A program made the position numbers and the translations under genes. 64,000 nt of DNA from an uncultured Planctomycetales bacterium (GTDB lineage Bacteria > Omnitrophota > Gorgyraeia > Zapsychrales > JANLHA01), in the NCBI GenBank assembly GCA_964474085.1, contig CAYYRJ010000010.1, forward strand, positions 12,606 through 76,605. Reading direction: 5' to 3'. Below are positions 4,814 to 41,004 of the stretch, one piece after another (the first letter of the stretch is position 1; the number at the start of each line of letters is the position of its first letter). The notes beneath the pieces were generated by a model. The model was not told the DNA's origin. It searched no databases and worked only from the letters and a program-made list of their open reading frames with translations.

Positions 4814-4887
4814 AAAATTATTCAAAAAATTATTAAGGGGTTCAGGTAAATTGTAATCCTGAAGAGGTTTTTTTGAGATGGTCGGGC

Positions 4888-4928
4888 CGCCATCTGATTT
4901 TAGTGATCAGATGGCGTTTATTTTTTTA
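4888..4928 (+). terminator. rho-independent terminator
   Basis: 11-bp perfect stem cgccatctgat / atcagatggcg with a 7-nt loop, followed by tttattttttt. Confidence 0.6.
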
Positions 4929-4944
4929 CGATAGGAGCAGACCA

Positions 4945-7206
4945 ATGAAAGTAACGTTAAGACTTATTCTTTCTTTAATCTCGATTGTGGCCGTTGTGGC
5001 TTTTTCATTTTCATTTTGGCAGGCCCGACAAGAAGAAGATAGGCTCAAGACGGAATTAGAAAAAAGAGCGAGTTTTGTCGCGGATAGTTTGCGGATTTCT
5101 GTCGAGCCGATGCTGGCAACCGACGGGAACAGTCAATATTTACAGCGGCTCGTGGACCGATTTTCTAATCGTGAAAAACTTGTGGGGATTGATATTCACG
5201 ATGTCAGAGAGAACTTGATCGTTAATTCAAAAGGGATCAAGCCCCAGCTGGAAGCAGACCCCCGAGTTTTATCGCAGGCGATTGAGGAAGTTGAGCGGAC
5301 AGGCAATGAGCACGGCAGCTCTGTTACTTTAGAGGGCACAAATTTATATGCTTATACTGTTCCGATCGTGACTGGAGAAAAGACATCACATGTTTTGACG
5401 CTCTTTTATGATGTGGATTATATCCGCGATCGTGTTAAGAGGCTTTTGATCAATAATTTCTGGAGAGCATTGACTCAGGCTCTTTTGATCGCTTTGACGA
5501 CGTTTATTATTATTTTTTATAACGTCATGGCTCCGATCAGAAAAACGACAATGTGGATCAAAAAGATCCGTAAAGGCGAGCCATCGCGTCCTCTGGATGC
5601 CAGAGAACAGCTTTTATTGGGCCCTTTGGCCTTGGAAATCACTCGAATGGCCAAGAGTTTGGACGTGGCCAGAGCCGCAGCAGATGAGGAAGCTCGTTTA
5701 CGATATTCATCGGAATCCCGCTGGACGCCGCAGCGTTTGAAAGAATTTATCCGTTTAAAATTGGAAGACCGGCCGCTTTTTGTGGTTTCAAATCGTGAAC
5801 CATATATGCATATCAAAAATGGCAAAGACATCGAATGTATTGTTCCAGCCAGCGGTTTAGTTACCGCCCTTGAACCGGTGCTCAATGCGTGCGGCGGGAC
5901 ATGGATCGCACAAGGAAGCGGCAATGCTGATCGTGAAACGGTCGATAAAAATGACAGGATCATGGTCCCTCCGGAAGAACCCAAATACACTTTACGTCGT
6001 GTCTGGGTTGAGAAGGATTTGGAAGAAGGTTTTTATTCCGGATTTTCTAATGAGGGATTGTGGCCTTTGTGCCATATCGCGCATACACGGCCGATCTTCA
6101 GGGCCAAGGATTGGGAGGATTATAAAACGGTAAATCAAAAATTTGCCCATGCTGTTTCCCAAGAGCTCGAAGGTGTTTCAAATCCTTTTGTTCTGATTCA
6201 GGACTATCATTTTGCATTACTCCCGCGTTTGATCAAGCAGTTAAAACCTGATGCAAAGATTGCAATATTTTGGCACATCCCGTGGCCCAATCCCGAATCT
6301 TTTGGGATTTGTCCGTGGAGAAAAGAGCTATTAGACGGAATGTTAGGTGCAGATATCATAGGTTTTCACACGCAATTTCATTGCAATAATTTTATTGAAT
6401 CCGTTGACCGATTTTTGGAGTCGCGGATTGATTATGAACATTTTTCTATATATCGTGAAGGCCATACCAGCCTGGTCAAACCTTTTCCGATCAGTATCAA
6501 TTTTGATTCTGCGAATGGAGATTCAGCGAAGGAAGCGGTGAACAAAGCAGAGCTTTTGAAAAAGTACGGAATTCAAGCTCAATATCTGGGGGTTGGAGTT
6601 GACCGTTTGGATTACACGAAAGGTATTTTGGAAAGGTTCCGGGCCATCGAGAATCTTCTTGACAATCATTCGTCTTTCCGGGGGAAATTTACTTTCGTTG
6701 AACTGGGAGCGCCCAGCCGGACCATGATCCCGAAGTATAAAGAGTTCATCGATGAAATTACCAAAGAGGTCGAGCGGATCAACGCGAAGTTTAAGAAAAA
6801 CAACTGGCAACCGATTCTTTTTTTGATGAAACATCATAGCCATAAAGAGATCCTCCCCTTTTATCAGGCCGCGGATGTTTGCCTGGTGACCTCTTTGCAT
6901 GACGGGATGAACTTGGTCGCCAAGGAATTCATTTCGTCGCGGGCTGATGAACGTGGGGTTTTGGTTTTAAGCCAATTTACGGGGGCGGCAAGAGAGTTGC
7001 AGGACGCTTTGATCATTAATCCCTATGATGTCGTCGAAACCGCGCGCGCAATCAAGTCGGCTTTGGATATGAAGCCGGAAGAACAAAAAGATCGTATGAA
7101 ACGGATGCGCGAAACGGTCCAAAGCAATAACATTTACCGCTGGGCTGGAGAATTAGTCGAGCAATTGACCCATCTGAGGACTGAAAGCGCTGAGAGGGGA
7201 GTTTAA
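4945..7206 (+). CDS. otsA: membrane-anchored sensor-HAMP-trehalose-6-phosphate synthase fusion (GT20 OtsA catalytic domain)
   Basis: C-terminal ~470 aa is a clear GT20 domain (LWPLCHI..., [16 protein letters not shown]). The N-terminus has TM1 (res 5-28), a ~150-aa extracytoplasmic region, TM2 and an amphipathic HAMP-like linker. AGGAG RBS at 4933 precedes the ATG at 4945. Confidence 0.8.
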
Positions 7207-26838: not shown

Positions 26839-27210
26839 ATGAAACAGATTAAAAAGTTTGTGTTGATGGGGGCAGGGTTTTTGTTTGTAGCCTTGGGTGT
26901 TATCGGCTTCTTTTTGCCGGTTATGCCTAGCGTTCCTTTTTTTATTCTTGCGTCGATTTGTTTTTCGAAAAGTTCTGAAAAGTTTCATGATATGTTGATG
27001 AATAATAAATGGGTTGGGCCCCAAATTAGAGACTATCATCAGAATAATGGAATTAAGATGAGCACAAAGATTTTTTTGATTGTTTTGCAATGGTCGGGGA
27101 TATTATTTACGTCGATATTCTTTGTTCATAACCTGTTTGGAAGAGTCCTTATGCTTTGTATTGCCGTGGGCGTGACCGTTTACATAGTCTCGTTAAAAAC
27201 TGCCAAATGA
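26839..27210 (+). CDS. DUF454/YbaN-family inner membrane protein
   Basis: GFFLPVMPSVPFFILASICFSKSSEKFH, then a xGPxIRDY motif. Confidence 0.75.
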   Translation: MKQIKKFVLMGAGFLFVALGVIGFFLPVMPSVPFFILASICFSKSSEKFHDMLMNNKWVGPQIRDYHQNNGIKMSTKIFLIVLQWSGILFTSIFFVHNLFGRVLMLCIAVGVTVYIVSLKTAK

Positions 27211-28076
27211 CAAAAAAACCTAAAACCAAGACAGCTATCAGCAGAGGCCGCCGGGGTCTTTCAAAAAAGAAACCACACGAAACCCGCAAGGCTGAGCGCG
27301 TGCGGTTGCAGGGGCGGGTTAATTTTTTAAGTGATTCGCGAGATCAGTTGGATTTGGAACTCAAAGAACAGCGCGAAGAGCTTTTGCATGTAACACGCGT
27401 TGGCAAAATGGCAGAATTTGTTTCATCTTTAGCGCATGAAATTAGCCAGCCGCTGACGGCTATTCTTTCCTATGCTCAAGGTGCCAAGCGCATGCTGGGT
27501 AATCGGGAACCAGAGATACAAGAAATTTTGCAGTACATAATTAATGATGACCAGCGGGCGGCTGAGGTTATAAGGCAGTTGCGTTCGCTGCTTAAGAAAA
27601 GTGAGCCGCAGATAACGCTTTTAGATATCAATGCGCTTATCAGCGAAACGGTTTTGCTGCTCTCTGCGGATGCGACAGCCAAAAAAAATATTCTTAAGCT
27701 AGAGCTTAGTGCAAATATCCCGATGATAAAAGGCGATCGGATACAGCTGCAGCAGGTGCTTATAAATCTTATTAGCAATAGTTTTGACGCCATGCACGGC
27801 AGTAAACAGTCACATCAGATGGTGATTCGCACTTTACGTAAAGATCCAGAAACAATTTTAGTCGGAGTGCAGGACACAGGCTGCGGTATTGCGCCAGAGA
27901 ACATGACTAAAATTTTTTCGCATTTTTTTACCAGTAAGCCCGACGGGTTGGGCATGGGCCTGTCAATCAGCCGTTCGATCATTGCTGAGCATGGCGGAAT
28001 TTTGGAAGCAAAGAATAATCCTGATTGCGGCGCGACTTTTTATTTTACTTTGCCGATTGTTAGCAAACAGCTATGA
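27207..28076 (+). CDS. soluble sensor histidine kinase (no TM or sensor domain)
   Basis: HisKA LAHEISQPL plus HATPase_c. Start overlaps the YbaN stop (ATGA). Confidence 0.75.
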   Translation: MTKKPKTKTAISRGRRGLSKKKPHETRKAERVRLQGRVNFLSDSRDQLDLELKEQREELLHVTRVGKMAEFVSSLAHEISQPLTAILSYAQGAKRMLGNREPEIQEILQYIINDDQRAAEVIRQLRSLLKKSEPQITLLDINALISETVLLLSADATAKKNILKLELSANIPMIKGDRIQLQQVLINLISNSFDAMHGSKQSHQMVIRTLRKDPETILVGVQDTGCGIAPENMTKIFSHFFTSKPDGLGMGLSISRSIIAEHGGILEAKNNPDCGATFYFTLPIVSKQL

Positions 28077-28699
28077 AGAGTACAAAACCTATCGTTTATG
28101 TCGTTGATGATGATCTTTCTGTTTGCCGCGCTTTATCTGTTTTGTTAACTGCCAACGGGTTTTGGGTTGAAACTTTTAATCGGCCAGAGGATTTTTTGGC
28201 TTTCAAGCATCCGCATTTGACCGCTTGCCTTGTTTTGGATATTCGTATGCCTAAATTCAGCGGCTTTGAGCTTAGCGAAATAATGGCTCAACGCAAAATT
28301 GAAGTGCCTGTCATTTTCATAACCGGTCACGGCGATATCCCGATGAGCGTCAAGGCGATGAAGGCTGGTGCTATTGATTTTTTGCCTAAGCCGTTTACCC
28401 AAAAACAATTGCTGGCCGCTATTACTTTGGCTTTGATTAGAAGTAAAAAACAAAATTTAGAAAAATCGCAAATTGCGAGGATCAAAGGCCGCATCAAAAC
28501 TTTGTCGGTCCGCGAATTGGAGGTTTTTCGTTTTGTTGCTTTAGGGATGTTAAGCAAGCAGATTGCCTTCAAGCGTGGAACGTCCCTGCAAACGATCAAA
28601 GTCCACCGCTCCCGCGTCATGCAAAAGATGGACGCAAAAACCGTCACCGAGCTTATTGCCTTTGCGCAAAAAGCCGGCATAGTCTCTCTGCCACAATAA
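28073..28699 (+). CDS. FixJ/LuxR-family response regulator (REC + HTH)
   Basis: VVDDD REC domain and a LuxR-type HTH. ATGA overlap with the HK gene. Confidence 0.8.
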   Translation: MKSTKPIVYVVDDDLSVCRALSVLLTANGFWVETFNRPEDFLAFKHPHLTACLVLDIRMPKFSGFELSEIMAQRKIEVPVIFITGHGDIPMSVKAMKAGAIDFLPKPFTQKQLLAAITLALIRSKKQNLEKSQIARIKGRIKTLSVRELEVFRFVALGMLSKQIAFKRGTSLQTIKVHRSRVMQKMDAKTVTELIAFAQKAGIVSLPQ

Positions 28700-28832
28700 T
28701 CTTTCAATAATAAAATTCATTCTCTCGTCGGGAAAGTCCGCTATTATACCTCGGTACAATTGCATCGCTTCGCCTCTTGCCTAAAATACAATCATGAATT
28801 TAGAAAACACACCATCTAAGGAGAAAAGCCCG

Positions 28833-29219
28833 ATGCTCTCAGATAAAAGAAAAGTCTTTATTGTTGACGATGACATTTCGGTTCGACGTGCCCTGGGGAT
28901 TCTTTTAAAGACTTATGAGTTTATTGTCGAAGCTTTTTCATCCGCTGAAGAGTTTTTTAGTGCTGTGCCCAACAGCGTTGCAGGCTGTTTACTCTTGGAT
29001 ATCCATATGCCCGGCCTAGACGGCTGGGGTACCCTTTCGCGGCTGCAAGCGTCAGGGTCAAAACGTTCGGTGATTATGATTACCGCCGAAAAGAATAATG
29101 GGGTAAGGGCCCGGGCGATGAGTGCAGGCGCCACGGGATTTTTACAAAAACCATTTAACGACCAAGAGTTGGTTGCTTTGATCAACCAGTCGTTTTTGGA
29201 AAGGAGGTCACCATGTTAA
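28833..29219 (+). CDS. single-domain response regulator (REC only)
   Basis: FIVDDD...[11 protein letters not shown]...FLQKPF. AAGGAG RBS places the start at 28833. Confidence 0.7.
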
Positions 29220-29377
29220 ATTGGGCAGTGACATTTTTTGTTATTGCTATTATCGCCGCGGTTTTGGGATTCGGCGGTATTGCAGGCTCGGCTATTGACA
29301 TTGCCAAGATTTTATTCTTTGTATTCTTGGTTTTGGCAGTGCTTTCATTCCTTTTAGGGAGAACAAGAACGTTGTAA
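29213..29377 (+). CDS. UPF0391 (DUF1328, YtjA-like) small membrane protein, 54 aa; not in ORF track
   Basis: [64 protein letters not shown] at 29201. Overlaps the REC gene stop. Confidence 0.7.
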
Positions 29378-29406
29378 TTCAAAAACAGGTTAACGAAAGG
29401 GATTAT

Positions 29407-30183
29407 ATGAATATGGATCATGTGAAAGTTTTGGTTGCATCTTTAGGGGTGGTTTTAATGATGGGTTCATCCGCGGGTGCTTCGCAAACGGATGAACGGA
29501 TTGAAGCCTCTGCCAAGAAGTCGTATGTTTTTAAGACGTATCTTAAAGACGACAGTATTAACACCCAGTCAAAAGATGGCGTGGTTACTTTGACGGGCAC
29601 GGTCGCCGAAGAATCACACAGATCATTGGCCCAGGAAACAGTGGCCAATTTACCCGGAGTTGTCAACGTCGATAACCAGTTAAAACTACAAGGGCAAGTG
29701 CCCGTTGAGAATTCGGATAATTGGATCGGGATGCAGGTTAAGTATTCGCTACTTTACAATCGCAATGTCAGCGGCATTAATACAAAAGTTGCTGTTGTTG
29801 ATGGCATTGTTACGTTAAAAGGCGAAGCCGAGAATCAAGCGCAGATTGACTTGGCTGGTGAATATGCCAAGGACATCAAAGGGGTCAAGGACGTCAAGAA
29901 TGAAATGACGATTGCTAAAGTTATCAGTGTCCCTAAGCAAACTTTAGCCGAAAAGATCGATGATGCTTCGATTACCGCGCAAATAAAGATGGCGCTTTTA
30001 TCGCATCGCTCGACGAGTGCTTTTAAAACCGGCGTGGCGACTTTAAACGGGGAAGTTACTTTGACCGGCAAAGCCGACAATGCCGCTGGAAAAGATATCG
30101 CCAGCAAACTTGCCAATGATGTTTATGGCGTGACAAAAGTGGTCAATAACATGACTATTGAAGATGTTTTGTCAAAAAAATAG
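29407..30183 (+). CDS. periplasmic BON-domain protein (OsmY-like, three BON repeats)
   Basis: Signal peptide plus three repeats of GVVTLTG...A...PGV..V.N.L. Confidence 0.8.
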   Translation: MNMDHVKVLVASLGVVLMMGSSAGASQTDERIEASAKKSYVFKTYLKDDSINTQSKDGVVTLTGTVAEESHRSLAQETVANLPGVVNVDNQLKLQGQVPVENSDNWIGMQVKYSLLYNRNVSGINTKVAVVDGIVTLKGEAENQAQIDLAGEYAKDIKGVKDVKNEMTIAKVISVPKQTLAEKIDDASITAQIKMALLSHRSTSAFKTGVATLNGEVTLTGKADNAAGKDIASKLANDVYGVTKVVNNMTIEDVLSKK

Positions 30184-30195
30184 GTGTTTAGAAAA

Positions 30196-30240
30196 GGCCG
30201 GTTGGTGCTTTAAGTTAAACGCACCAGCCGGTGTTTCTTG
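30196..30240 (+). terminator. rho-independent terminator
   Basis: Stem ccggttggtgc / gcaccagccgg (one G-U pair), followed by tgtttctt. Confidence 0.4.
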
Positions 30241-30276
30241 AGGATAATTCTAAAATTACGATAAAAGGGGGAAGAT

Positions 30277-30417
30277 ATGAAAAAGAATTTAATGTTGATT
30301 TTTACCGCTGTGTTTTTAACAACGATGATCGCAGGTTGCAATATGTTTAAAGGCGCTGGAAAAGACATGGAAAACGCCGGCAAAGGGATTCAAAAAACAG
30401 TGGACCGTAATGATTAA
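30277..30417 (+). CDS. entericidin-like small lipoprotein, 46 aa; not in ORF track
   Basis: MKKNLMLIFTAVFLTTMIAGCNMFKGAGKDMENAGKGIQKTVDRND, with a lipobox and a glycine-rich amphipathic tail. RBS aaaggggg. Confidence 0.65.
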   Translation: MKKNLMLIFTAVFLTTMIAGCNMFKGAGKDMENAGKGIQKTVDRND

Positions 30418-30420
30418 ACG

Positions 30421-30609
30421 TTGTTTTTGGCATTTGCGCAAGCAGGAGGCATTATTAAAAAATTGGTCGTTTCTCTAAAGGGAAGAAAATGTAAATATCC
30501 AAGATGCAAGCACATCTTAAGTATTTATAACCATGAAATTTATTGTCACGTTCATGCCGCCAGTCTGGAGGACCGAAAAGGGGGGCAAGGGGTATGCGCG
30601 GGGATTTAA
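30421..30609 (+). CDS. putative small zinc-ribbon protein (start uncertain)
   Basis: C-KYPR-C ... C-HVH spacing suggests a metal ligand set. Overlaps the GtrA start. No clean RBS. Confidence 0.25.
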   Translation: MFLAFAQAGGIIKKLVVSLKGRKCKYPRCKHILSIYNHEIYCHVHAASLEDRKGGQGVCAGI

Positions 30610-30977
30610 AAGAAATCTTGCGTTTTTCAATGGCCGGCGCTTTAGCCGGTTGTGTCGACTTAAGCGTTTATTTTCTTTTGATCCCTTTCGTATCTTTTAA
30701 CATTTCTAAAGCGATTTCTTTTACCTGCGCCGGAATTATCGCGTATTTGCTAAATAAGTTTTGGATATTTAAAAGTAAGATGTCTGTTTCCTATCAAGAA
30801 ATTGGGCGCTATATTCTCGTCAATCTTTTAGCTTTGGTGATTAATATTTTGACTAATCAGGGCATTTTAAAACTCTGGCCTTCGTCTTTTCTTTTAGCTT
30901 GGAGCATCGCTTCAATAGCTACCGGTTTGGTGACTTTTTTGGGCTTTAAATGGTGGGTTTTTCGTTATCCGAAGTAA
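30594..30977 (+). CDS. GtrA-family membrane protein
   Basis: 127 aa with 4 TM helices and the GtrA-like pattern FxxxGxxxxxxNxxLxxxxxF...KWWVFR. Confidence 0.7.
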   Translation: MRGDLKEILRFSMAGALAGCVDLSVYFLLIPFVSFNISKAISFTCAGIIAYLLNKFWIFKSKMSVSYQEIGRYILVNLLALVINILTNQGILKLWPSSFLLAWSIASIATGLVTFLGFKWWVFRYPK

Positions 30978-31044
30978 TGCGTATAGAAAGCCTCTGGTCA
31001 GGGAAGTATAATAAACTCAGATAAAAACAAAATTGAGGTTTGCC

Positions 31045-33315
31045 ATGTGGTGGAAATGGTTGCCGTGGAAATTTCTTGTTCGTCAGGCAGCGCGCCGGCA
31101 GGGGTTTTTAGACCCGATTAAACTGCTTTCGCAATTGCAGAATTTTGCCCAGCCCTCTGAAGTTGCCGCCCCGACGGAGTTATTGCGTTCCGGCGTTGTT
31201 CTTCACGCGCGGGGCTTGATGAACAGTTTGGCGATTCAGCATAATTTAGACTGGGTTTGGCCGTATTGGGTCGAATGCCAATATGATCCGCTTAACAGAG
31301 CGTTTATTCCCAGATCGTTTTCTTTAACACAAATTAATCTTACACATCGAAATTGGACGGCTTTAGGCGTTCCTGACGGTGTCGAGTTTCCGCTGGTTGA
31401 CCCCCGAGGGCTTTTGACGCCGTTTTATGATAGCTGGTCGATCGATGTTTGGATTATCCCCCAAACTGGGCAGCCGCTTTTTCCTTCGCGCTGTCCGACG
31501 GTATCCCAAAAATTGATCATAAAAGACAATCTTTGCGTCACAACAGAATCAAGTCTTGATTCTCTAAAATTGCAATTAAAGGCCAAGGTCATTGGCAGCG
31601 CGCAAACGCCGGTCTGCCAGCTAAAAATTTCAGCATCATCGTCGGTCAAAGCGCGGCTGGTTGTTTCTCTAAGACCGTATAATCCAGAAGGGGTCAGCTT
31701 TATCAATACGATAGCGATGATGGAAGATTCTTTGGGATGGAAAGTTAACGGCGAGCATTCGATCTATTTTGATAAAAAGCCGCACCAATGTATTTTTTGT
31801 AATTATCAACAGGGGGATGTTTATAGCCGTTTGTCTTTCCCTGAGCCTGAACATGAAATTTCCTGTCACGTCGGCATGGCCACTGCGGCGGCGACTTACA
31901 CATTATCTGAGGGAGAGATGCAAGAAATTACGGTTTTAATCCCATTGTCAAAACACCCTTTTAAAAAAGAAAATTCCAGTCACGATGAAAAAACAGCCGA
32001 TTCTTTATGGGAAAAAAGTTTAGAAGGCGCCTGCCGTTTGCAAATTCCCGACGAGCATTTTATGTTCCTTTATCAGGCGGCGCTTAAGACGATGGTTTTG
32101 CATTCCCCTCGCGAAGTTTATCCGGGGCCGTTTATTTATCGGCGGTTTTGGTTTCGTGACGCCGCTTTTATTTTGCACGCGCTTCTGGCGGTCGGATTAA
32201 AAGACCGCGTCAAACGCGCCTTGGATTGTTTTCGCGCACGCCAGACGAATCAAGGGTATTTTCTTTCGCAAGAAGGCGAATGGGATTCCAACGGTCAAGC
32301 GCTTTGGATTATCGAGCAGTATTGCCGGATGAGTGGAAATCCGCCGGCAGAACAATGGGAAAACTCGATTAAAAAGGCAGGCGAATGGATTTGCAAAAAG
32401 TGTTTGCCTGAGGATTTGCCTTCTGCGCACGCCGGTCTTTTGCCGTCGGGCTTTAGCGCTGAACATTTGGGACCCAACGATTTTTATTATTGGGATGATT
32501 TTTGGGGTGTCTCGGGGTTAAAGGCTGCAGCTTTTTTGTGTGAAAAAAACAAGAGCGCAAAATTGTCGATCAAGTTTGAAAAAAAAGCATTCGCTTTATT
32601 AGAAAGCATTATGGAAAGTTTAAAAAAAGTCCAAGCGCGTTTGCACCGACCGGCAATCCCGGCTTCGCCGTATCGACGTCTTGATACAGGCGCTATCGGC
32701 TCTTTGGTGGCGGGGTATCCGCTTCGAATTTTTAAACCCGATGATCAAAGGCTTTTAGACACGGCAGATTTTTTAATGAAAAACTGTTTGGTCGCTGGCG
32801 GATTTTTTCATGACATGACCCACTCTGGGATCAATCCTTATCTGACGCTGCATTTGGCCCAAGTGCTTTTGCGCGCCGGTGATGAACGTTATTTTCCGCT
32901 GATGACGGCGGTCGCAAATCTTGCTTCCCCGACGGGACAATGGCCCGAGTCAGTGCATCCGCAAACCTTAGGCGGCTGCATGGGAGACGGGCAGCATGTT
33001 TGGGCAGCGGCTGAATGGGTGCTTATGGTCCGCAACTGTTTTGTCCGTGAAGAAGAGCAAAGTCTTATTTTGTGCAGCGGGATCTCTAAAGAGTGGCTTT
33101 TACAAAAACAAACAATGAGCTTTGGCCCGGCCCCGACGAGTTTTGGCGACATTCAAGTTTTTATAAAAGTTAATGAAGAAAATATTGTTGTTGAGTGGAA
33201 AGGCCAATGGTTTGGCCAAGCGCCGTCGATTGAAATTCGTTTGCCGGGGTTTGCGCCAGAGCGTGTTTTGCCGGGAGTCGATCAGCTGGTTTTAAAACTT
33301 GAGGCAAAGTCATGA
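31045..33315 (+). CDS. large six-hairpin (alpha/alpha)6 glycosidase-like protein (GDE_C / GH63 / GH116-like; family unresolved)
   Basis: 756 aa with an N-terminal beta-rich region, then FIYRRFWFRDAAFILHALLAVG and QGYFLSQEGEWDSNGQALWI resembling the W-x-RD...Q..G motifs of amylo-alpha-1,6-glucosidase-type barrels. ATG at 31045 after GAGG. Confidence 0.45.
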   Translation: MWWKWLPWKFLVRQAARRQGFLDPIKLLSQLQNFAQPSEVAAPTELLRSGVVLHARGLMNSLAIQHNLDWVWPYWVECQYDPLNRAFIPRSFSLTQINLTHRNWTALGVPDGVEFPLVDPRGLLTPFYDSWSIDVWIIPQTGQPLFPSRCPTVSQKLIIKDNLCVTTESSLDSLKLQLKAKVIGSAQTPVCQLKISASSSVKARLVVSLRPYNPEGVSFINTIAMMEDSLGWKVNGEHSIYFDKKPHQCIFCNYQQGDVYSRLSFPEPEHEISCHVGMATAAATYTLSEGEMQEITVLIPLSKHPFKKENSSHDEKTADSLWEKSLEGACRLQIPDEHFMFLYQAALKTMVLHSPREVYPGPFIYRRFWFRDAAFILHALLAVGLKDRVKRALDCFRARQTNQGYFLSQEGEWDSNGQALWIIEQYCRMSGNPPAEQWENSIKKAGEWICKKCLPEDLPSAHAGLLPSGFSAEHLGPNDFYYWDDFWGVSGLKAAAFLCEKNKSAKLSIKFEKKAFALLESIMESLKKVQARLHRPAIPASPYRRLDTGAIGSLVAGYPLRIFKPDDQRLLDTADFLMKNCLVAGGFFHDMTHSGINPYLTLHLAQVLLRAGDERYFPLMTAVANLASPTGQWPESVHPQTLGGCMGDGQHVWAAAEWVLMVRNCFVREEEQSLILCSGISKEWLLQKQTMSFGPAPTSFGDIQVFIKVNEENIVVEWKGQWFGQAPSIEIRLPGFAPERVLPGVDQLVLKLEAKS

Positions 33316-34778
33316 CCCAAAGTCTTCTTACAGGATTTAGAAATTTCTTGGTACTAAGCACTGGTCAATTTATTGATCCGCACGAGATTGAAGCGCTTTA
33401 TACCCAATCGGCTCCTGTCAAAGAAATGTGTGTTTTTGCGATTTTAGGGATGAAAGGTCATAAGAAATCAAAAGTGCTCTGGGCGGTCATTGTGCCGGAT
33501 TTAGAGCAGTTTAGAGAATTTGATGAAGTTAATTTGCGTGCTGTGATTGGAGAGCGTTTTGATAATGCGGCGCAGGCACTGCCGGTTTACAAAAGGCTTA
33601 AAGGTTTTACCCTGACCCTCAAAGATTTGCCGCATACGTATTTGGGAGCTGTGGACACAAGTCAGGTCAAAAAAATATTTGAACCTCGTGTGTTGGCCGG
33701 ACTAGAAGGAAGTATTTCTGGTGGTGGCAAGATTTCACCAGAGGATTTGCTTTTACGTGAATCATCGACGGGAAAGAAAGTCCTGGAATGTTTAATGCTG
33801 CAGAGCAAAGCAAATCAGCCGATCACTCTTGAAGATTCTCTGGAGTTGGATTTAGGGATTGATTCCTTAGGGCGTATTGAGCTTGCTTCGCGTTTAGCAC
33901 TTGGGTTTAGCGCTGATATTAAGCCGGAGGTTATTTCAAAATCGTTTAGGATCAAGGCGCTTATTGTAAGTATTAACGAAGCCTTAAAAGATGCAAAAGC
34001 TATTCTTCCGTCAGATGAAGGCTTGACTTTGGGAGCGGATTATTGGGAAGAACATCTAAATGTCCTGCCTAAAAAAGAAACGCTGGATATGCTCGAGCTG
34101 GGAACAGGCTATTTTGCGTGGCTGTTTCGGTTTGTCATAACAGCTATTAATTTTGTGATTTTTAAATTATTTTTTCAGATTAAAGGGCAAGGTGCTGAGT
34201 ATGTACCGAAAGAAGGCGCTTTTATTCTTTACGGCAATCATACAAGTTTTTTGGACGGTTCGGCGATTGCCGCTTGCCTGCCACGTCGACGCGTGTTTCA
34301 ACTCTTTTATTTTGTTTTTGGCCCGTATTTTTTTAGACCTTTCGAAAAATCCAGTGTTTTGCGCAACTTAGTCAAGATGGGACGCTTTATTCCGTTTGAT
34401 TATTCAACGCATTTTTTGGAGGCTTTGCGCAGTAGTTATTATGTTTTACAGCAGGGAAAGGGCTTATGTTTTTTCCCGGAAGGCTTGCGAAGTACGACGG
34501 GAGAAATCGGTGAATTTAGAAAGGGTTTTGGCGTTTTGGCCAAAGAAACGGGTGCTAAACTTGTTCCGGTCGCGATAGACGGAGCGCACGAGGCTTGGAG
34601 CAGCACGGCCAAGTTCCCGCGCTGTTATCCTATTCGTGTGCGTTTTGGAAAACCCCTTTTACCGGCGGATTTAGAAAAGCAAGGGTTTGCGATGGGTGCC
34701 AAAAACAGTTATGAGGCTATTTGTATTGCCGCGCGTGCGGCGCTTATCGAATTAAAAAACGATAAAGGTAAGATATGA
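33312..34778 (+). CDS. tri-partite protein: C-terminal remnant of an acyl-CoA/ACP synthetase, an acyl-carrier domain and an LPLAT (PlsC-like) acyltransferase
   Basis: Residues 1-120 match a FACL-type C-terminus (EMCVFAI, KVLWAVIVPDLEQ, LPVYKRLKGFTLT). The DLGIDSLGRIELA phosphopantetheine site is at ~180. NHTSFLD (HxxxxD) and FPEGLRS acyltransferase motifs follow. ATGA overlap with the upstream gene. Confidence 0.65.
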   Translation: MTQSLLTGFRNFLVLSTGQFIDPHEIEALYTQSAPVKEMCVFAILGMKGHKKSKVLWAVIVPDLEQFREFDEVNLRAVIGERFDNAAQALPVYKRLKGFTLTLKDLPHTYLGAVDTSQVKKIFEPRVLAGLEGSISGGGKISPEDLLLRESSTGKKVLECLMLQSKANQPITLEDSLELDLGIDSLGRIELASRLALGFSADIKPEVISKSFRIKALIVSINEALKDAKAILPSDEGLTLGADYWEEHLNVLPKKETLDMLELGTGYFAWLFRFVITAINFVIFKLFFQIKGQGAEYVPKEGAFILYGNHTSFLDGSAIAACLPRRRVFQLFYFVFGPYFFRPFEKSSVLRNLVKMGRFIPFDYSTHFLEALRSSYYVLQQGKGLCFFPEGLRSTTGEIGEFRKGFGVLAKETGAKLVPVAIDGAHEAWSSTAKFPRCYPIRVRFGKPLLPADLEKQGFAMGAKNSYEAICIAARAALIELKNDKGKI

Positions 34779-37700
34779 AAATTCTTATGATGACAAATTC
34801 CTATGCGCCTATGGTCGGCGGCATCGAGGAGTCGATACGCTCGTTTAGTGCCGAGTTTGAAAAATTAGGGCATGAGGTTATGATCGTGGCCCCCGAGTGT
34901 GAGGGAGCGCCGTTAGACGAGGTAGGCGTTATCCGTCTTCGGGCGATACAAAATTTTAATAATTCGGATTTTTCTATCGCACTGCCTATGTCGAGTCTTT
35001 TGCCAGAACTGATCAAAACTTTTAAGCCGGACATTATTCATAGTCATTATCCCTTTTGGATGGGCAGCATTGCGCTTCGTTTAAGCGGACAGTTTAAGAT
35101 TCCGCTGGTCTTTACGTATCACACGATGTTTGAACAGCACATGCATTATTTACCGGTTCAAAATGAGGGCGTGCAGAGGTTTATCGTCGAGATTTTTGCC
35201 GGTTACGCAAACTTGGCAAACCAAGTCGTGGTTCCCAGTGAAAGTGTCCGCGTTATTCTTTTAGAGCGCGGGGTAAAGACCCCCATCGCTGTTGTGCCAA
35301 CGGGAGTTGATTTACAGAGGTTTTCGCGCGGGGACGGCAAGGTGGTCCGTCACCGGCTGGGGATTGCGCAGGATGCGCCTTTGATCGGTTATGTCGGTCG
35401 TCTGGCCTTGGAAAAAAATCTTGAATTTTTAAGCTCTGCTGTGGCCGCGTATTTAAAACAAGAAACGAGTGCGCATTTTGTCGTCGGTGGCGATGGCCCG
35501 CTCAAAGAACTTATCCAAAAGATTTTTGACGAGCAAGGAGTCGGTAAGCGTCTGCATTTTGCCGGTGTGCTTAAAGGCCAAGATTTAGTTGACTGTTATC
35601 AGGCGATGAATGTGTTTGCCTTTGCTTCATTAAGCGAAACGCAGGGCATTGTTTTGGTCGAAGCAATGGCCGCCGGCGCTGCGGTTGTGGCTTTGGATGC
35701 GCCCGGCGTGCGTGAAGTGCTCAAAGATGGTTACAATGGCCGTCTTGTTTTTGGCGAAAATAAAAATAATTTTGTTGAGGCGCTTTCGTGGTGTTTGAAG
35801 TTGCCGGCCAATGAGTTTGTGCGTATTAAAGAAAACGCAAAAACAACGAGCAAAGAATTTTCAGTCAACAGTTGCGCACTGCGTATGCTTAAAACTTACG
35901 ACGAGGTTTTGGTCAAAGAGTATTCGTCGCCCGATTATAAGAATAGTCCGTGGGATGCTTTGGCCGGCCGGCTTAAAAACGAGTGGGACATGTTTAAAAA
36001 TGTGTTGGAATCCGGTACGAGTGCTATTGTCGACACAAGCAGTTTGCCAAAGCCGCTTGTCAAAAAAGCCAGGGGATTGTTTCTTCGTCTGCCGAGGCTT
36101 TTGTCGTTAAGCGAATGGTCCGCTAAATTGTTGCGTTTGCCCCGCACGCAAGATACGCAAACGGATCCCGGCCTTGTGCTTATTCAGATTGACGGGTTTT
36201 CGGGCGGTCAGTTTAAGAAAGCTATTGAACAGGGAAAAATGCCTTTTCTCAAAGGTCTGCTGCAAAAACAATACTACACGCTTTATCCGCAGTATCCGGG
36301 TTTGCCGTCGAGCACGCCGTCAGTGCAGGGGGAATTGTTTTATGGGGTCAAACAAATTGTCCCTGCTTTTGCTTTTTGGGACCGCGAAACGCAAAAAATT
36401 TTTCGTATGTATGACGGCCCGGCGGTTTTGGAAATTGAGCGGCGTCTGGCCGCTCAAGGCCAAGGTCTTTTGGCAGAAGGGAGCTCTTACTCTAATATAT
36501 ATTCAGGCGGCGCTATGCAATCGCATTTTTGTGCCACATCTTTGGGGTGGAGCAAAATTTGGAAAGAAATTAACCCACTGAACTTTTTTATTCTGATCTT
36601 GACGCATTTTCCTTCTTTTGTCCGCATGATGGCCTTAACGGCATGGGAAATGATTTTAGGCGCTGTTGATTTTGGCTGGGGGATACTAAGGGGTGAGAAT
36701 TTTAAAAATGAATTTAAATTTATTTACCTGCGAGCGTTAATTTGTGTTCTTTTGCGTGAGCTTGTGACCTTAGGCGTCAAAATCGATATCGTGCGCGGCT
36801 TGCCGATTATTCATGTCAACCTTTTAGGCTACGATGAATTAGCCCACCATAGCGGTCCGTCTTCCACGTCGGCACATTGGTCTTTAAAAGGGATTGACCG
36901 CGCTATCGAAAAAATTTATGGCAAAGCTCTTCATTCTTCGGCGCGCAGTTACGATGTTTGGATTTATTCGGATCATGGGCAAGAGGACACCGTTTCATAC
37001 GCGGCTAAGTACAAGCGCAGTATCGAAGAAGCGGTTGCCGAAGTTTATAAAGAATTTGACGCAACGGCCCAATTTTCGGTTGTTGATAAAACCAGCGAAC
37101 AGTTGCAGCGTGCGCGTTTTTTAGGATTTTCATTTTTGGAAAAGTTTTTTAGCGGTGTTTCTTTTCCTAAAGAAAATCTTTTAGAAAACAAGCTGATTGT
37201 CACGGCCATTGGCCCGACGGGAAATATTTATTTGCCCCGACAGATGAGCTTGGAGGAAAAGTGCCGTTTTGCGCAATGCTTGGTCGCAAAGGCTTATATT
37301 CCTGTGGTCATGTTTGTAGACGAACAAGGAAAAGTCCGCGTGTGGACTGACCAAGGCGAATTTTGTTTGCCGCAAGATGCCAAAACAATTCTGGGTGCGG
37401 ACCATCCCTATTTGGCCGCGGTTACTGAGGATATTATTGCCCTTTGTCAGCACAAGAATGCAGGAGACTTTACGTTGATGGGATATCAGCCGAACAAAAA
37501 ACCGATGAGCTTTCCGCTTGAAAACGGTTCGCACGCCGGACCGGCCCCAAAGGAAACAGATGGCTTTGCACTTTTGCCCAAGGACATTATTCCCCGACAA
37601 AGAACCCGGGAGTATATTACCCCGATGGATTTGCGTTTTGCCGCTTTACGGTTCTTGAAGCGTTCTGTCCCGAAAGAAAACAAGTCCTATCCAGAAATTA

Positions 37701-38467
37701 TATTTCCTCAAAAGAGTGCTGTGGACAAAGAAACTATTCGCGTGATGACTTATAATGTCCACTCCTGTATCGGCATGGACGGCAAAATTTCGCCAGAGCG
37801 CATTGCGCGTGTCATCGGACGCCATCAGCCGGATATTGTAGCGCTCCAAGAGTTGGACTTAGGCCGCAAGCGCACTGGGCAAATCGATCAGCCGCAGCTT
37901 ATTGCCAAGGAATTAGAAATGCATTATCACTTTCATCCGTCAGTCATTGTCGACGAAGAACATTACGGCAATGCGATTCTTAGCCGATATCCGCTGGATC
38001 TTGTCCGTGGTGGACATTTGCCGGAAATTGCCCGGCATCGGATGGTCGAACGCCGCGGCGCGATTTGGGCAACAGTCAATATCGGTAAAACAAGGATTAA
38101 TTTCTTTAATACGCATTTTGGTCTTCTGCCGCGTGAGGCGATTTTGCAGGCGCAGGCACTGCTGGGGGCAGAGTGGATTTCTCATTTCGTCTGTCAGGGG
38201 CCGGTTATTTTGTGCGGAGACTTTAATTCTTTACCTAATTCGCAGGTCTGCCGCGATATTAAAAAAGTCTTGCGCGATGCCCAAGGAGAATTGGACAATC
38301 ATCGTCCTAAATCGACGTGGTTTAGCCATTATCCGATCGGCCGGATTGATCATGTCTTTGTCAGTCCGGATATTGAAGTGACTCATGTTGAAGTTTCCCG
38401 CAGCGATTTAGACAAGCTCGCTTCAGATCACCTGCCGCTTATTGTGGACATTAAATTAAAGAAATAG
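34775..38467 (+). CDS. 1230-aa fusion: GT4 glycosyltransferase + AlkP-superfamily phosphodiesterase (NPP/PglZ-like) + endonuclease/exonuclease/phosphatase (EEP) domain
   Basis: GT4 region: ETQGIVLVEAMAAGAAVVALDAPG. Middle region: IQIDGFSGGQF...MPFLKGL...PSSTPS...YSDHG. C-terminal region: MTYNVHS...ALQELD...GDFNS...IDHVFVS. ATGA overlap with the upstream gene. Confidence 0.7.
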   Translation: MKILMMTNSYAPMVGGIEESIRSFSAEFEKLGHEVMIVAPECEGAPLDEVGVIRLRAIQNFNNSDFSIALPMSSLLPELIKTFKPDIIHSHYPFWMGSIALRLSGQFKIPLVFTYHTMFEQHMHYLPVQNEGVQRFIVEIFAGYANLANQVVVPSESVRVILLERGVKTPIAVVPTGVDLQRFSRGDGKVVRHRLGIAQDAPLIGYVGRLALEKNLEFLSSAVAAYLKQETSAHFVVGGDGPLKELIQKIFDEQGVGKRLHFAGVLKGQDLVDCYQAMNVFAFASLSETQGIVLVEAMAAGAAVVALDAPGVREVLKDGYNGRLVFGENKNNFVEALSWCLKLPANEFVRIKENAKTTSKEFSVNSCALRMLKTYDEVLVKEYSSPDYKNSPWDALAGRLKNEWDMFKNVLESGTSAIVDTSSLPKPLVKKARGLFLRLPRLLSLSEWSAKLLRLPRTQDTQTDPGLVLIQIDGFSGGQFKKAIEQGKMPFLKGLLQKQYYTLYPQYPGLPSSTPSVQGELFYGVKQIVPAFAFWDRETQKIFRMYDGPAVLEIERRLAAQGQGLLAEGSSYSNIYSGGAMQSHFCATSLGWSKIWKEINPLNFFILILTHFPSFVRMMALTAWEMILGAVDFGWGILRGENFKNEFKFIYLRALICVLLRELVTLGVKIDIVRGLPIIHVNLLGYDELAHHSGPSSTSAHWSLKGIDRAIEKIYGKALHSSARSYDVWIYSDHGQEDTVSYAAKYKRSIEEAVAEVYKEFDATAQFSVVDKTSEQLQRARFLGFSFLEKFFSGVSFPKENLLENKLIVTAIGPTGNIYLPRQMSLEEKCRFAQCLVAKAYIPVVMFVDEQGKVRVWTDQGEFCLPQDAKTILGADHPYLAAVTEDIIALCQHKNAGDFTLMGYQPNKKPMSFPLENGSHAGPAPKETDGFALLPKDIIPRQRTREYITPMDLRFAALRFLKRSVPKENKSYPEIIFPQKSAVDKETIRVMTYNVHSCIGMDGKISPERIARVIGRHQPDIVALQELDLGRKRTGQIDQPQLIAKELEMHYHFHPSVIVDEEHYGNAILSRYPLDLVRGGHLPEIARHRMVERRGAIWATVNIGKTRINFFNTHFGLLPREAILQAQALLGAEWISHFVCQGPVILCGDFNSLPNSQVCRDIKKVLRDAQGELDNHRPKSTWFSHYPIGRIDHVFVSPDIEVTHVEVSRSDLDKLASDHLPLIVDIKLKK

Positions 38468-38540
38468 TTCTTTTAAAGGAATATTGTGATGTAAAATTCT
38501 TTTCGTATTCTAAACTTTCATAAATCGTAGTGAGGTTTTT

Positions 38541-40184
38541 ATGCGTATTTTGATTGTAGGCGGTGTTGCCGGCGGAGCTTCTGCAGCGGCGCGGGCGCGC
38601 AGGTTGTCGGAGGATGCAGAGATCATTATTTTTGAACGCACCGAGCATGTGTCTTTTGCTAACTGCGGCTTGCCGTATCATGTCGGTGGGGTCATTAAGG
38701 AAAGGGCAAAGCTTTTGGTCCAAACTCCCGAGTCATTGTATCGGCGCTTTCGTATCACAACAAAAGTTAAGACGGAAGTTTTGTCGATTGACCGTTCGCA
38801 AAAAAATATTACCGTCAAAAATTTGGTCACAGGACAAGAGTCCAAAGAGGCGTATGATTTTTTGATTTTAAGTCCCGGCGCGGATCCGATCAAGCCGCCT
38901 ATGCCTGGCTTAGGTTTACCGCAGGTTTTGACTTTGCGCAATTTAGCGGACATGGATAAGATTATCGCGAAGATTGCGCAGGGTAAGGCCCAAAAAGCGC
39001 TGGTCGTTGGCGGAGGATACATTGGTTTGGAAATGACTGAGGCTTTGTGCGAACGTGGACTTCGGGTGACGATCGTTGAGCTTTCGTCGCAGGTGATGGG
39101 GCCCTGCGATCCTGAGATGGCGTACTATTTACATCAAGAGCTGACTAAACATGGGGTTGAATTAAAATTTGGTGTTTCGGTCAAAAGTTTTTCTCAGGCT
39201 TCTGATGGTGTTTTGGCAGAATTAAGCGATGGGCAGTCGATCACATGTGATTTTGTTATTTTAGCTATTGGCGTTAAGCCCGACGTAAGTCTAGCCAAAA
39301 ACGCAGGGTTAACAATCGGTGAGCGCGGCGGCATTGTTGTCAATGACAAGATGCAGACAAATGACCCGAGCATTTTTGCCGTCGGGGATGCGATTGAAGT
39401 TGAGGAATTTGTGACTGGCACAAAAGCTTTGATCCCTTTGGCGGGGCCGGCTAACCGGCAAGGTCGTATTGCGTCAGATAATATTTTTGGCCGCAACGTG
39501 ATTTACAAAAAGACTCAAGGCACAGCAATTTGCAAATTGTTTGATCTGACGATCGGCATGACGGGAGTTAATGAAAAGATTTTAAAACGGATGAATATGC
39601 TTTACGAAAAAGTTTATATTCACCCTAATCATCATGCCAGCTATTATCCGGGCGCTGTGCCAATGAGCATGAAGTTACTTTTTGATCCTAAGAGCGGAAA
39701 AATTTTAGGAGCTCAAGCTGTCGCAAGCCAAGGCGTCGATAAGCGCATTGATGTTTTGGCGGTGGCTCTGCGGGCGGGGATGACGGTTTATGATTTAGAA
39801 AATTTAGAGCTCTGTTATGCTCCGCCGTATGGCGCGGCCAAAGATCCGGTTAACTTTTTGGGATTTGTTGCGGCCAATTTGCTTAAAGGCGATTTTAAAC
39901 AGTGTCACAGCGACGATATAAAATCATTAAAGCCGGACCAAATTATTTTAGATGTCAGGTCAGCCAAAGAAGCGCAAGCCGGCATGATTGCAGGGGCCGT
40001 GAATATTCCCGTCGATGATTTGAGGGACAAGTTGCGAGAGCTTTCAAAGGACATAGAATATTTAACGTATTGTCAGGTGGGTTTGCGCGGCTATCTGGCG
40101 TGCCGGATACTGATGCAAAACGGCTTTAAATGCCGAAACCTCTCCGGCGGGTATCAAACGTATAAATCGACTTTAGGTGATTGA
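38541..40184 (+). CDS. CoA-disulfide reductase / NADH-dependent persulfide reductase with C-terminal rhodanese domain
   Basis: FAD-binding VGGVAGGASAA, redox-active SFANCGLPY, and a rhodanese active site YCQVGLRG. Confidence 0.85.
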   Translation: MRILIVGGVAGGASAAARARRLSEDAEIIIFERTEHVSFANCGLPYHVGGVIKERAKLLVQTPESLYRRFRITTKVKTEVLSIDRSQKNITVKNLVTGQESKEAYDFLILSPGADPIKPPMPGLGLPQVLTLRNLADMDKIIAKIAQGKAQKALVVGGGYIGLEMTEALCERGLRVTIVELSSQVMGPCDPEMAYYLHQELTKHGVELKFGVSVKSFSQASDGVLAELSDGQSITCDFVILAIGVKPDVSLAKNAGLTIGERGGIVVNDKMQTNDPSIFAVGDAIEVEEFVTGTKALIPLAGPANRQGRIASDNIFGRNVIYKKTQGTAICKLFDLTIGMTGVNEKILKRMNMLYEKVYIHPNHHASYYPGAVPMSMKLLFDPKSGKILGAQAVASQGVDKRIDVLAVALRAGMTVYDLENLELCYAPPYGAAKDPVNFLGFVAANLLKGDFKQCHSDDIKSLKPDQIILDVRSAKEAQAGMIAGAVNIPVDDLRDKLRELSKDIEYLTYCQVGLRGYLACRILMQNGFKCRNLSGGYQTYKSTLGD

Positions 40185-40185
40185 T

Positions 40186-40599
40186 ATGAATAGCGTTTAT
40201 TTGTGCGGATTTTTAGGCGGGATGCTCATTGGCGCTGCTGCTGTTTTGTTGTTTTGGTTTAACGGCCGGATTATGGGAGTCAGCGCTATCAGCTCAAAAC
40301 TATTGGGTAAGCCGGACAAAGATTTTTTGTGGCGTTTGGCTTTTGTCTTGGGGCTTGTCGTGGGGGGATTTTTATATCAGCTTAAATTTCCGGTTGTTGC
40401 CGTTATCAAAGCCGATGTTGGGACTTTGATCATCGCTGGATTGCTTGTGGGATTTGGAACCGTGTTGGGCAACGGCTGCACGAGCGGGCATGGGATTTGT
40501 GGCATGGCAAGGTTCTCTAAGCGTTCAATCGCCGCAACCCTTAGCTTTATGGCAGCCGGGATTTTGACAGTGGCCATTAAGAATATGTTGGGAGGTTAA
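40186..40599 (+). CDS. YeeE/YedE sulfur-transport family protein, half-size (part 1)
   Basis: GNGCTSGHG motif. Alternative GTG start at 40177. Confidence 0.75.
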   Translation: MNSVYLCGFLGGMLIGAAAVLLFWFNGRIMGVSAISSKLLGKPDKDFLWRLAFVLGLVVGGFLYQLKFPVVAVIKADVGTLIIAGLLVGFGTVLGNGCTSGHGICGMARFSKRSIAATLSFMAAGILTVAIKNMLGG

Positions 40600-41004
40600 A
40601 TGACAAGTATCGTTGCTTTTTTTTGCGGGCTTATCATGTCTTTGGGCTTGATTATTTCTGGCATGGTCAATCCGCAAAAGGTGATTGGGTTTTTGGATAT
40701 GTTTAGACATTTTGACCCGACCCTGGCCTTTGTTATGGCGGGCGCTTTGCTGGTTGCGGCCGTCGGGTTTCGTCTCGTCGGATGCGGTAAGCCGTTATTG
40801 TGTGAGTGTTTTGATTTACCTAAAAAAAATAAAATTGATGCCCCGCTGATTATAGGCGCCGTAATTTTTGGTGTTGGCTGGGGCTTGGCCGGGTTTTGTC
40901 CGGGGCCGGCGATTGTTGGCGTAGGGTTAGGGTTACCTTACGCTGGTGTTTTTGTGCTGGCTATGCTTTTGGGGATGTTTTTTGCCAGAAAGGTTTTAAA
41001 ATGA
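40600..41004 (+). CDS. YeeE/YedE sulfur-transport family protein, half-size (part 2)
   Basis: Homologous half encoded as a separate gene. GGAGG RBS. Confidence 0.75.
   Translation: MTSIVAFFCGLIMSLGLIISGMVNPQKVIGFLDMFRHFDPTLAFVMAGALLVAAVGFRLVGCGKPLLCECFDLPKKNKIDAPLIIGAVIFGVGWGLAGFCPGPAIVGVGLGLPYAGVFVLAMLLGMFFARKVLK

Follow-up and report, generated by a model that had tools for sequence, protein, structure and literature searches.

A conserved GT4–NPP–EEP fusion protein of Omnitrophota as a candidate converter of phospholipid to glycolipid

Introduction

The conversion of phospholipid to glycolipid is a major bacterial adaptation that has so far been explained by a single enzyme pair, PlcP–Agt. 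PlcP makes diacylglycerol and a GT4 glycosyltransferase glycosylates it, a lipid renovation known from marine and soil bacteria (PMC4796936, PMC8231724). Two other described systems are relevant here: the ybhP-clsB-ybhN operon of Escherichia coli (bioRxiv 10.1101/2022.03.11.483950) and the phosphatidyl-trehalose lipids of Salmonella, which need ClsB (PMC6446866). Here, we consider a stretch of 64,000 nucleotides from an uncultured Omnitrophota bacterium (contig CAYYRJ010000010.1 of assembly GCA_964474085.1), referred to as the window. An open reading frame (ORF) at positions 34775–38467 of its forward strand encodes a protein of 1230 residues in which a GT4 glycosyltransferase is joined to two different phosphoesterase folds, an NPP-type domain and an endonuclease/exonuclease/phosphatase (EEP) domain.

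For this protein and its relatives, the analysis establishes which domains are present, that their catalytic residues are intact, that the genes have been fused and split, that a gene cassette is conserved, and that there are features suggestive of membrane binding. We tentatively favor a reading in which the fusion protein is a cytoplasmic, membrane-peripheral converter of phospholipid to glycolipid that would resemble PlcP–Agt in its logic while using unrelated phosphoesterases. The evidence for this head-group exchange is presented below, together with the alternatives that parts of the same evidence bring to mind.

Results

The fusion protein is described by four Pfam models, each of which exceeds its gathering cutoff. 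Two of these cover the GT4 module, a retaining glycosyltransferase of the GT-B type (residues 1–382; 34775–35920, +): Glyco_transf_4 (residues 14–182, 4e-36, 125 bits versus a cutoff of 28.5) and Glycos_transf_1 (residues 193–357, 2e-32, 112 bits versus 26.4). The NPP-type phosphodiesterase domain of the alkaline phosphatase superfamily (residues ~462–960; 36158–37654, +) is matched by Phosphodiest PF01663 (residues 467–753, 6e-8, 33–36 bits versus 23), and the YbhP-like EEP domain (residues 988–1228; 37736–38458, +) by Exo_endo_phos PF03372 (residues 991–1219, 1e-26, 94 bits versus 24.5). An original prediction, made from the DNA letters without database searches, had placed GT4, AlkP/NPP-like, and EEP domains in one ORF of 1230 residues, and Pfam confirms all three. 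The motifs that it quoted were also located in the protein: PSSTPS at 511–516, YSDHG at 731–735, LQELD at 1024–1028, GDFNS at 1148–1152, and DHVF at 1192–1195. The ATG start codon of the fusion gene overlaps the stop codon of the upstream gene (ATGA). More than 100 full-length homolog clusters (40–75% identity) share the three-domain architecture, and the long frame is for this reason no sequencing artifact. The fusion gene is real.

Conservation of the catalytic residues was measured on an alignment of 62 full-length homologs with 40–75% identity. In the GT4 module, the glutamates of the EX7E motif (E288 and E296) are invariant, as are R209 and K214, basic residues that bind the donor phosphate. 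The invariant residues of the NPP domain are D473, the nucleophile T514, D687, H691, D733, H734, and H920, which make up a threonine nucleophile and an Asp/His two-metal set. In the EEP domain, N994, D1149, N1151, D1218, and H1219 are invariant, and conservation reaches at least 90% at E1026, H1114, and D1192. The conserved metal ligands, which the original prediction had singled out as a check, are present; with this degree of conservation at every catalytic position, a pseudo-enzyme reading is rejected for each of the domains. The conservation of all three active sites is one reason to favor a head-group exchanger.

The fusion had been called unusual, which overstates the case, as it belongs to a conserved fused family whose split form is widespread across phyla. 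Those triple-fusion clusters that carry a name come from Omnitrophota, Planctomycetota, or Thermoguttaceae and are annotated merely as glycosyltransferase. When species-representative genomes were scanned, relatives turned up in Gammaproteobacteria, among them the cultured Microbulbifer agarilyticus and Bowmanella dokdonensis as well as Ca. Methylobacter favarea. Others came from groups that include Alpha- and Deltaproteobacteria, Verrucomicrobiota, Nitrospirota, and Sumerlaeota. Analysis of the ORFs at these loci gave the split form in nearly all of them: a GT4 gene of ~430 codons followed by an NPP–EEP gene of ~810 codons. An exhaustive search with the NPP domain returned 499 representative clusters at E ≤ 1e-30, and the best 150 of these 499 comprise 96 NPP–EEP proteins, 14 triple fusions, 4 GT4–NPP proteins, and 36 shorter ones. 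Because 96 of these best 150 have the NPP–EEP architecture, we regard NPP–EEP as the core protein. The GT4 fusion is lineage-specific, an argument for cooperation between the three activities. The Rosetta-stone pattern, in which GT4 and NPP–EEP are adjacent in most phyla and fused in Omnitrophota and Planctomycetota, likewise favors head-group exchange. Judged by ORF length, further fusion variants may exist, namely a GT4 gene product of 831 residues (locus L017), an NPP–EEP protein of 1090 residues (L019), and GH15-like proteins of ~1020–1030 residues (L048 and L050), which could also be artifacts of the simple ORF caller. A frame of 1432 residues in L051 has no Pfam matches and is probably a spurious product of the same caller, and several antisense ORFs in high-GC loci were set aside as ORF-caller artifacts.

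The genes for these proteins stand in a cassette, absent from the original prediction, that comprises a GH15-like protein, GT4, NPP–EEP, and a GtrA or VTT membrane protein and is a functional unit. Its most conserved partner is the GH15-like protein of 760 residues (31033–33315, +), which consists of a β-sandwich and a helical barrel and is called GH760 here. When neighboring ORFs were clustered for 52 loci, the GH760 gene was adjacent in 33, with its stop codon usually overlapping the GT4 start, and a VTT/DedA-type membrane protein of ~240 residues was adjacent in 19. The GH760 family has 4967 matches at E ≤ 1e-5 among 8000 candidates and no Pfam model. An invariant Trp/Arg-rich N-terminal segment is shared by GH760 and its homologs P0121–P0240, and the conserved acidic residues E416, D418, E477, and E639 could be catalytic. 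The GH15-like gene also lies directly upstream of the triple fusion in L001 and L085–L087, and in L086 and L087 it is preceded by another small membrane protein (DUF2062, Sm_multidrug_ex).

In the window, a translocator-like GtrA-family protein of 144 residues (30543–30977, +; Pfam GtrA_DPMS_TM, 2e-19) takes the position that the VTT/DedA protein holds in Proteobacteria. Most Omnitrophota homologs of GH760 carry an N-terminal GtrA domain, for a total of ~890 residues, and we assign the separate GtrA gene to the unit on the strength of this fusion. That different small polytopic membrane proteins (VTT/DedA, GtrA, DUF2062, and Sm_multidrug_ex) have been recruited to one position speaks for head-group exchange. 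The membrane proteins could also be read in terms of polyprenyl-phosphate-linked glycan metabolism, in which undecaprenyl-(pyro)phosphate sugars would be the substrates and the carrier lipid would be flipped by GtrA or DedA. The GtrA and DedA families are tied to translocation of undecaprenyl phosphate or its sugar-linked forms (PMC10127716, PMC9876793), many GT4 enzymes use lipid-linked oligosaccharides, and the NCBIfam matches of the GT4 modules include such families as PglJ and TuaC. We nonetheless regard this role as very unlikely. The cassette has no recurrent gene for an initiating phosphoglycosyl transferase, Wzx/Wzy, an ABC exporter, or a GT2 GtrB-type enzyme, and the VTT protein of the cassette is not assigned to the UptA subfamily.

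The gene between GH760 and the fusion gene (33312–34778, +) overlaps both neighbors with its start and stop codons and encodes an acyl-carrier and PlsC-type acyltransferase of 488 residues. Its Pfam matches are Acyltransferase (1e-14), PP-binding (1.5e-4), and AMP-binding_C (4e-3), and its NCBIfam match to acyl-[ACP]--phospholipid O-acyltransferase (1e-22) falls short of the cutoff. A remnant C-terminal subdomain of an adenylate-forming enzyme comes first, followed by the carrier and then PlsC; this gene lacks the adenylation core. L083 and L084 carry a gene of like domain content at the same position, the L084 homolog matching PP-binding and Acyltransferase, and the acyltransferase gene represents an Omnitrophota-specific addition to the cassette. 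Sister cassettes of Omnitrophota contain a 53%-identical GT4 fused to an α/β hydrolase in place of NPP–EEP; they also hold the acyl-carrier protein (ACP)–PlsC acyltransferase of the window type, and one holds a patatin. The arrival of these lipid enzymes (α/β hydrolase, PlsC, and patatin) with the sister cassettes again favors head-group exchange.

The GT4 module has affinities of two kinds. For 25 of 25 scanned GT4 modules, the best NCBIfam family is α-monoglucosyl-diacylglycerol (MGlcDAG) synthase, with GlcNAc-phosphatidylglycerol synthase next, a ranking that supports a head-group exchanger; both leading scores are well under the equivalog cutoffs. The alignment with the MGlcDAG synthase model NF049988 runs end to end, from residues 1–381 of the protein to positions 1–390 of 398 in the model. 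The module closes with a conserved W...EW helix (residues 390–412; 35942–36010, +) in which conservation is 90% or more at W393, E403, and W404, and the C termini of 24 split GT4 genes show that stand-alone GT4 genes end soon after this helix. Among solved structures, the module is closest to MshA (2e-21), sucrose-phosphate synthase Tll1590 (4e-16), and GlgM, and MshA is also the second or third best NCBIfam family.

These latter affinities suggest a pathway for a soluble stress protectant, or compatible solute, in which GT4 would glycosylate a phosphorylated small acceptor, the fused phosphoesterases would remove the phosphate as in TPS–TPP and SPS–SPP, the GH15-like protein would degrade the α-glucoside, and the membrane protein would import or export it. 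The GT4 N-terminal domain, which is not cationic, and the HSP20, DnaJ, Usp, CBS, and BON stress genes that recur nearby would be at home in such a pathway, as would the TreT-like trehalose synthase of the L054 cassette. The members of GH15 include trehalases and glucoamylases. On the other hand, the pathway leaves unexplained the fusion of GtrA to the GH15-like protein, the VTT/DedA, PlsC, patatin, and α/β-hydrolase partners, and, as described below, the amphipathic and hydrophobic stretches in the NPP module and the pairing of EEP relatives with phospholipase D (PLD). A single dephosphorylation needs no two phosphoesterase folds, and the usual partner, a HAD-type phosphatase, is not present. 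We consider a compatible-solute pathway unlikely.

The middle domain is NPP-type only. PF01663 is matched by 39 of 39 scanned family members, and the sequence of known structure nearest to the profile of these 39 is Xanthomonas NPP, with the DxxxHxxGP and SDHG motifs aligned. An AlphaFold model of residues 430–985 is confident (pLDDT 86.8, pTM 0.88), and in a Foldseek search of the whole Protein Data Bank (PDB) its best 50 matches all belong to the NPP/PhnA/PhoK clade. The fold is that of the NPP clade and not of sulfatase, iPGM, or phosphopentomutase. Among the structural neighbors (ENPP7, Xac NPP, ENPP6, ENPP4, and PhnA), the lipid phosphodiesterases ENPP7 and ENPP6 are a further argument for head-group exchange.

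The resemblance to NPP/PglZ-type enzymes that was originally predicted has therefore held in its NPP half, as judged by the PF01663 matches and structural neighbors, and failed in its PglZ half: neither PglZ nor Metalloenzyme is matched by any of the 39 members, and PADLOC returned no families. We reject a PglZ/BREX reading, as Pfam matches of the protein at E ≤ 1 include no PglZ. A search of the neighboring genes for BREX partners (PglX methyltransferase, BrxC, BrxL, etc.) found none, in agreement with what had been stated earlier; the genes around the fusion are those for GtrA, the GH15-like protein, the acyltransferase, a CoA-disulfide reductase, and transporters. It is highly improbable that the protein is a PglZ/BREX-like antiphage component or a nucleotide-directed enzyme that clears the nucleotide by-products of the glycosyltransferase. 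No other defense genes are nearby, the operon is of a housekeeping style conserved across phyla, and the membrane features and lipid-enzyme partners would be left unexplained. We agree with the original prediction that a lipid reading suits the neighbors better than defense, and a lipid phosphodiesterase function is what we infer.

Two features of the NPP region are of a kind expected at a membrane. A cationic amphipathic helix, KPLVKKARGLFLRLPRLL (residues 426–443; 36050–36103, +), has a hydrophobic moment of 0.61 and a net charge of +6 and may serve as an in-plane membrane anchor. Its counterpart in the stand-alone NPP–EEP proteins is their N terminus, and in 87 of these proteins the first 45 residues have a mean net charge of +4.8 (versus +0.3 in internal control windows) and a mean maximum hydrophobic moment of 0.59 (versus 0.42). 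The second feature is a family-specific, mostly hydrophobic helical insertion of ~85 residues within the NPP domain (residues ~592–676; 36548–36802, +), which is confidently modeled. Such a helix ahead of the domain and such an insertion within it favor an enzyme that exchanges head groups. Neither a signal peptide nor a clear transmembrane span was found in the fusion protein, which makes a cytoplasmic location of the enzymes most likely. Given the N-terminal fusion of GtrA to the GH15-like protein, they would work at the inner leaflet.

The structures nearest to the EEP domain are the EEPs 4ruw, 3teb, and 3g6s, which have no assigned function, followed by nocturnin, TDP2, and sphingomyelinases. 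The score against the YbhP equivalog NF003842 is 38–39 bits and does not reach the cutoff of 144. Stand-alone homologs of the domain (42–54% identity) were located at 31 loci of Caulobacteraceae, Methylobacterium, and Rhizobiales (L052–L082), and in 19 of these they adjoin a PLD-family, ClsB-like gene of ~520 codons. The pairing of the closest stand-alone EEP relatives with a ClsB-like PLD, as in ybhP-clsB-ybhN, favors head-group exchange. A LemA gene recurs near the stand-alone EEP genes in Brevundimonas.

The same pairing can be read differently, with the cassette as a builder or editor of glyco-phospholipids. NPP would then be a phosphotransferase (cf. EptA, LtaS, and PIG-N) that moves phosphatidyl, phosphoethanolamine, or glycerophosphate onto a sugar attached by GT4, giving a phosphatidyl-sugar or a phospho-decorated glycolipid, and EEP would trim the product. 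PF01663 is also the catalytic domain of glycosylphosphatidylinositol (GPI) ethanolamine-phosphate transferases, and the EEP domain has a further Pfam match to a PGAP2IP/Cwh43-type EEP model (4e-10). ClsB, to which the partner PLDs are similar, serves the Salmonella phosphatidyl-trehalose lipids mentioned above. A PLD–EEP pair lies ~3 kb downstream of the triple fusion in the planctomycete locus L002, and an Omnitrophota locus (L054:4647–13057) combines GH760, VTT, GT4, GtrA, a TreT-like trehalose-synthase-type transferase, a stand-alone EEP, and a ClsB-like PLD in one cluster. With these points in its favor, we still find such an assembly or editing role quite doubtful.

Upstream of the cassette, at 27156–30183 (+), Pfam identifies a histidine kinase, a NarL-type response regulator, a single-domain response regulator, and a BON protein, which are possible regulators and a stress partner. 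A trio of kinase, GerE response regulator, and response regulator stands ahead of both the window cassette and the sister cassette in L083, and a histidine kinase with a GerE response regulator precedes the L054 cluster. By their position, the two-component genes may be linked to the cassette. Stress genes recur nearby, with HSP20 in L002, L009, L016, and L086 in addition to DnaJ, Usp, CBS, and BON. On the 8.8-Mb planctomycete contig (L002:4072–15402), the triple fusion is flanked on either side by an array of three HSP20 genes, and genes for DnaJ and a trypsin/PDZ protease are close by, an arrangement that suggests heat or stress co-regulation.

A promoter and terminator scan of 28600–40300 gave a terminator count at the level of shuffled sequence, and Rfam and tRNA scans of the window returned nothing near the locus. 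Directly downstream of the fusion gene, at 38541–41004 (+), are a CoA-disulfide-reductase-like flavoprotein with rhodanese and two half-size sulfur-transport (YeeE/YedE-like) genes, which appear unrelated to the cassette. Elsewhere in the window, an nhaA-I RNA of a sodium-responsive riboswitch class (4838–4895, +; Rfam, 40.4 bits versus a gathering cutoff of 37) overlaps the start of an ORF of 777 residues (4873–7206).

Discussion

We infer from the findings above which substrates head-group exchange uses, in what order its steps run, and what triggers it physiologically. NPP, with its Thr514 nucleophile and two-metal site, and the YbhP-like EEP domain would together strip the phospho-head group from a phospholipid. 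This could proceed by a phospholipase C–type cut, after which the phospho-alcohol set free would lose its phosphate, or by a D-type cut, after which phosphatidate would be dephosphorylated; both routes would end in diacylglycerol. GT4 would then move a sugar from a nucleotide sugar to give α-glycosyl-diacylglycerol, and the co-transcribed GH15-like protein might trim or reverse the glycosylation. GtrA, or VTT/DedA in other phyla, could redistribute the new lipid across the bilayer, and in Omnitrophota the ACP–PlsC acyltransferase might re-tailor its acyl chains. That PlcP and a GT4 enzyme form a known, non-homologous pathway of the same logic is an additional reason to favor this proposal.

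Several observations weigh against it. Two phosphoesterase domains are not required by the model, and a GH15-like glycosidase that acts on a glycolipid is without precedent. The fusion protein scores 151–155 bits against NF049988, which does not reach the curated cutoff of 400, and the closest solved GT4 enzymes, MshA and sucrose-phosphate synthase, take sugar-phosphate acceptors. Classical monotopic lipid glycosyltransferases have a cationic N-terminal domain; when such a domain was looked for in the GT4 modules, the mean net charge was −2, which counts mildly against a lipid acceptor. The sporadic neighbors are general stress genes (HSP20, DnaJ, Usp, and BON) and not phosphate-starvation genes. 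Upstream of 16 proteobacterial cassettes, at the VTT genes, the best candidate for a Pho box agreed at 11 of 14 positions, no better than chance.

A bolder possibility is that the cassette makes and turns over an undescribed lipid class, a phosphorylated or phosphatidylated α-glycosyl lipid, as part of a stress response in at least 10 phyla. NPP would then act on head groups as a phosphotransferase, and the product would be flipped by the membrane protein. We hold this to be a distinctly speculative extension and think it improbable.

The cassette occurs in Omnitrophota, Planctomycetota, Verrucomicrobiota, and Nitrospirota and in many Proteobacteria; if the favored proposal is true, it would be a second, non-homologous solution to the conversion of phospholipid to glycolipid. 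The cassette and its relatives bring together three families without an assigned function: NPP–EEP, the YbhP-like EEPs, and the GH15-like proteins (~5000 matches, no Pfam model). They also give the VTT/DedA-type membrane protein a concrete and testable context, for which M. agarilyticus and B. dokdonensis are cultured hosts. Literature searches on this domain combination, the function of YbhP, and the glycolipids of Omnitrophota found no characterized member. The folds are known; the NPP–EEP protein, its fusion to GT4, and the cassette are uncharacterized and were not found in the searchable literature.

Overall, the fusion protein and its cassette share features with several known systems and differ from each. 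Like PlcP–Agt, the cassette couples a phosphoesterase, predicted here to act on phospholipid head groups, genetically to a GT4 enzyme, a coupling that is covalent in the window protein. PlcP, however, belongs to the calcineurin-type metallophosphoesterases and has no relationship to NPP or EEP, and the fusion has no Metallophos match. The cassette further differs in its two phosphoesterase folds, its GH15-like partner, and its translocator-like membrane protein; its neighbors are general stress genes, and the upstream search of 16 proteobacterial loci turned up no Pho box above chance. The SPS–SPP and TPS–TPP fusions also join a glycosyltransferase covalently to domains that remove phosphate, but they use HAD phosphatases and soluble substrates, whereas the cassette has NPP and EEP with membrane-associated partners. 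The MGlcDAG synthase of the Acholeplasma alMGS type is, like the GT4 module, a retaining GT4 with an EX7E motif, and it is the best curated family for each cassette GT4; scoring below the equivalog cutoff, the GT4 of the fusion is no equivalog, and its N-terminal domain is not cationic. Compared with the NPP/ENPP phosphodiesterases (Xac NPP, ENPP6, and ENPP7), to which it is ~12–17% identical, the NPP domain of the fusion is predicted to be cytoplasmic, has the hydrophobic helical insertion and the N-terminal amphipathic helix, and is always or nearly always fused to EEP. E. coli YbhP, which is itself without an assigned function (bioRxiv 10.1101/2022.03.11.483950), is placed by the NCBIfam PRK05421 models in one EEP subgroup with the fusion EEP, although the latter scores below the YbhP equivalog cutoff. 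YbhP and the stand-alone EEP relatives of the fusion are alike in being paired with a ClsB-like PLD, and both systems are tied to a putative lipid translocase.

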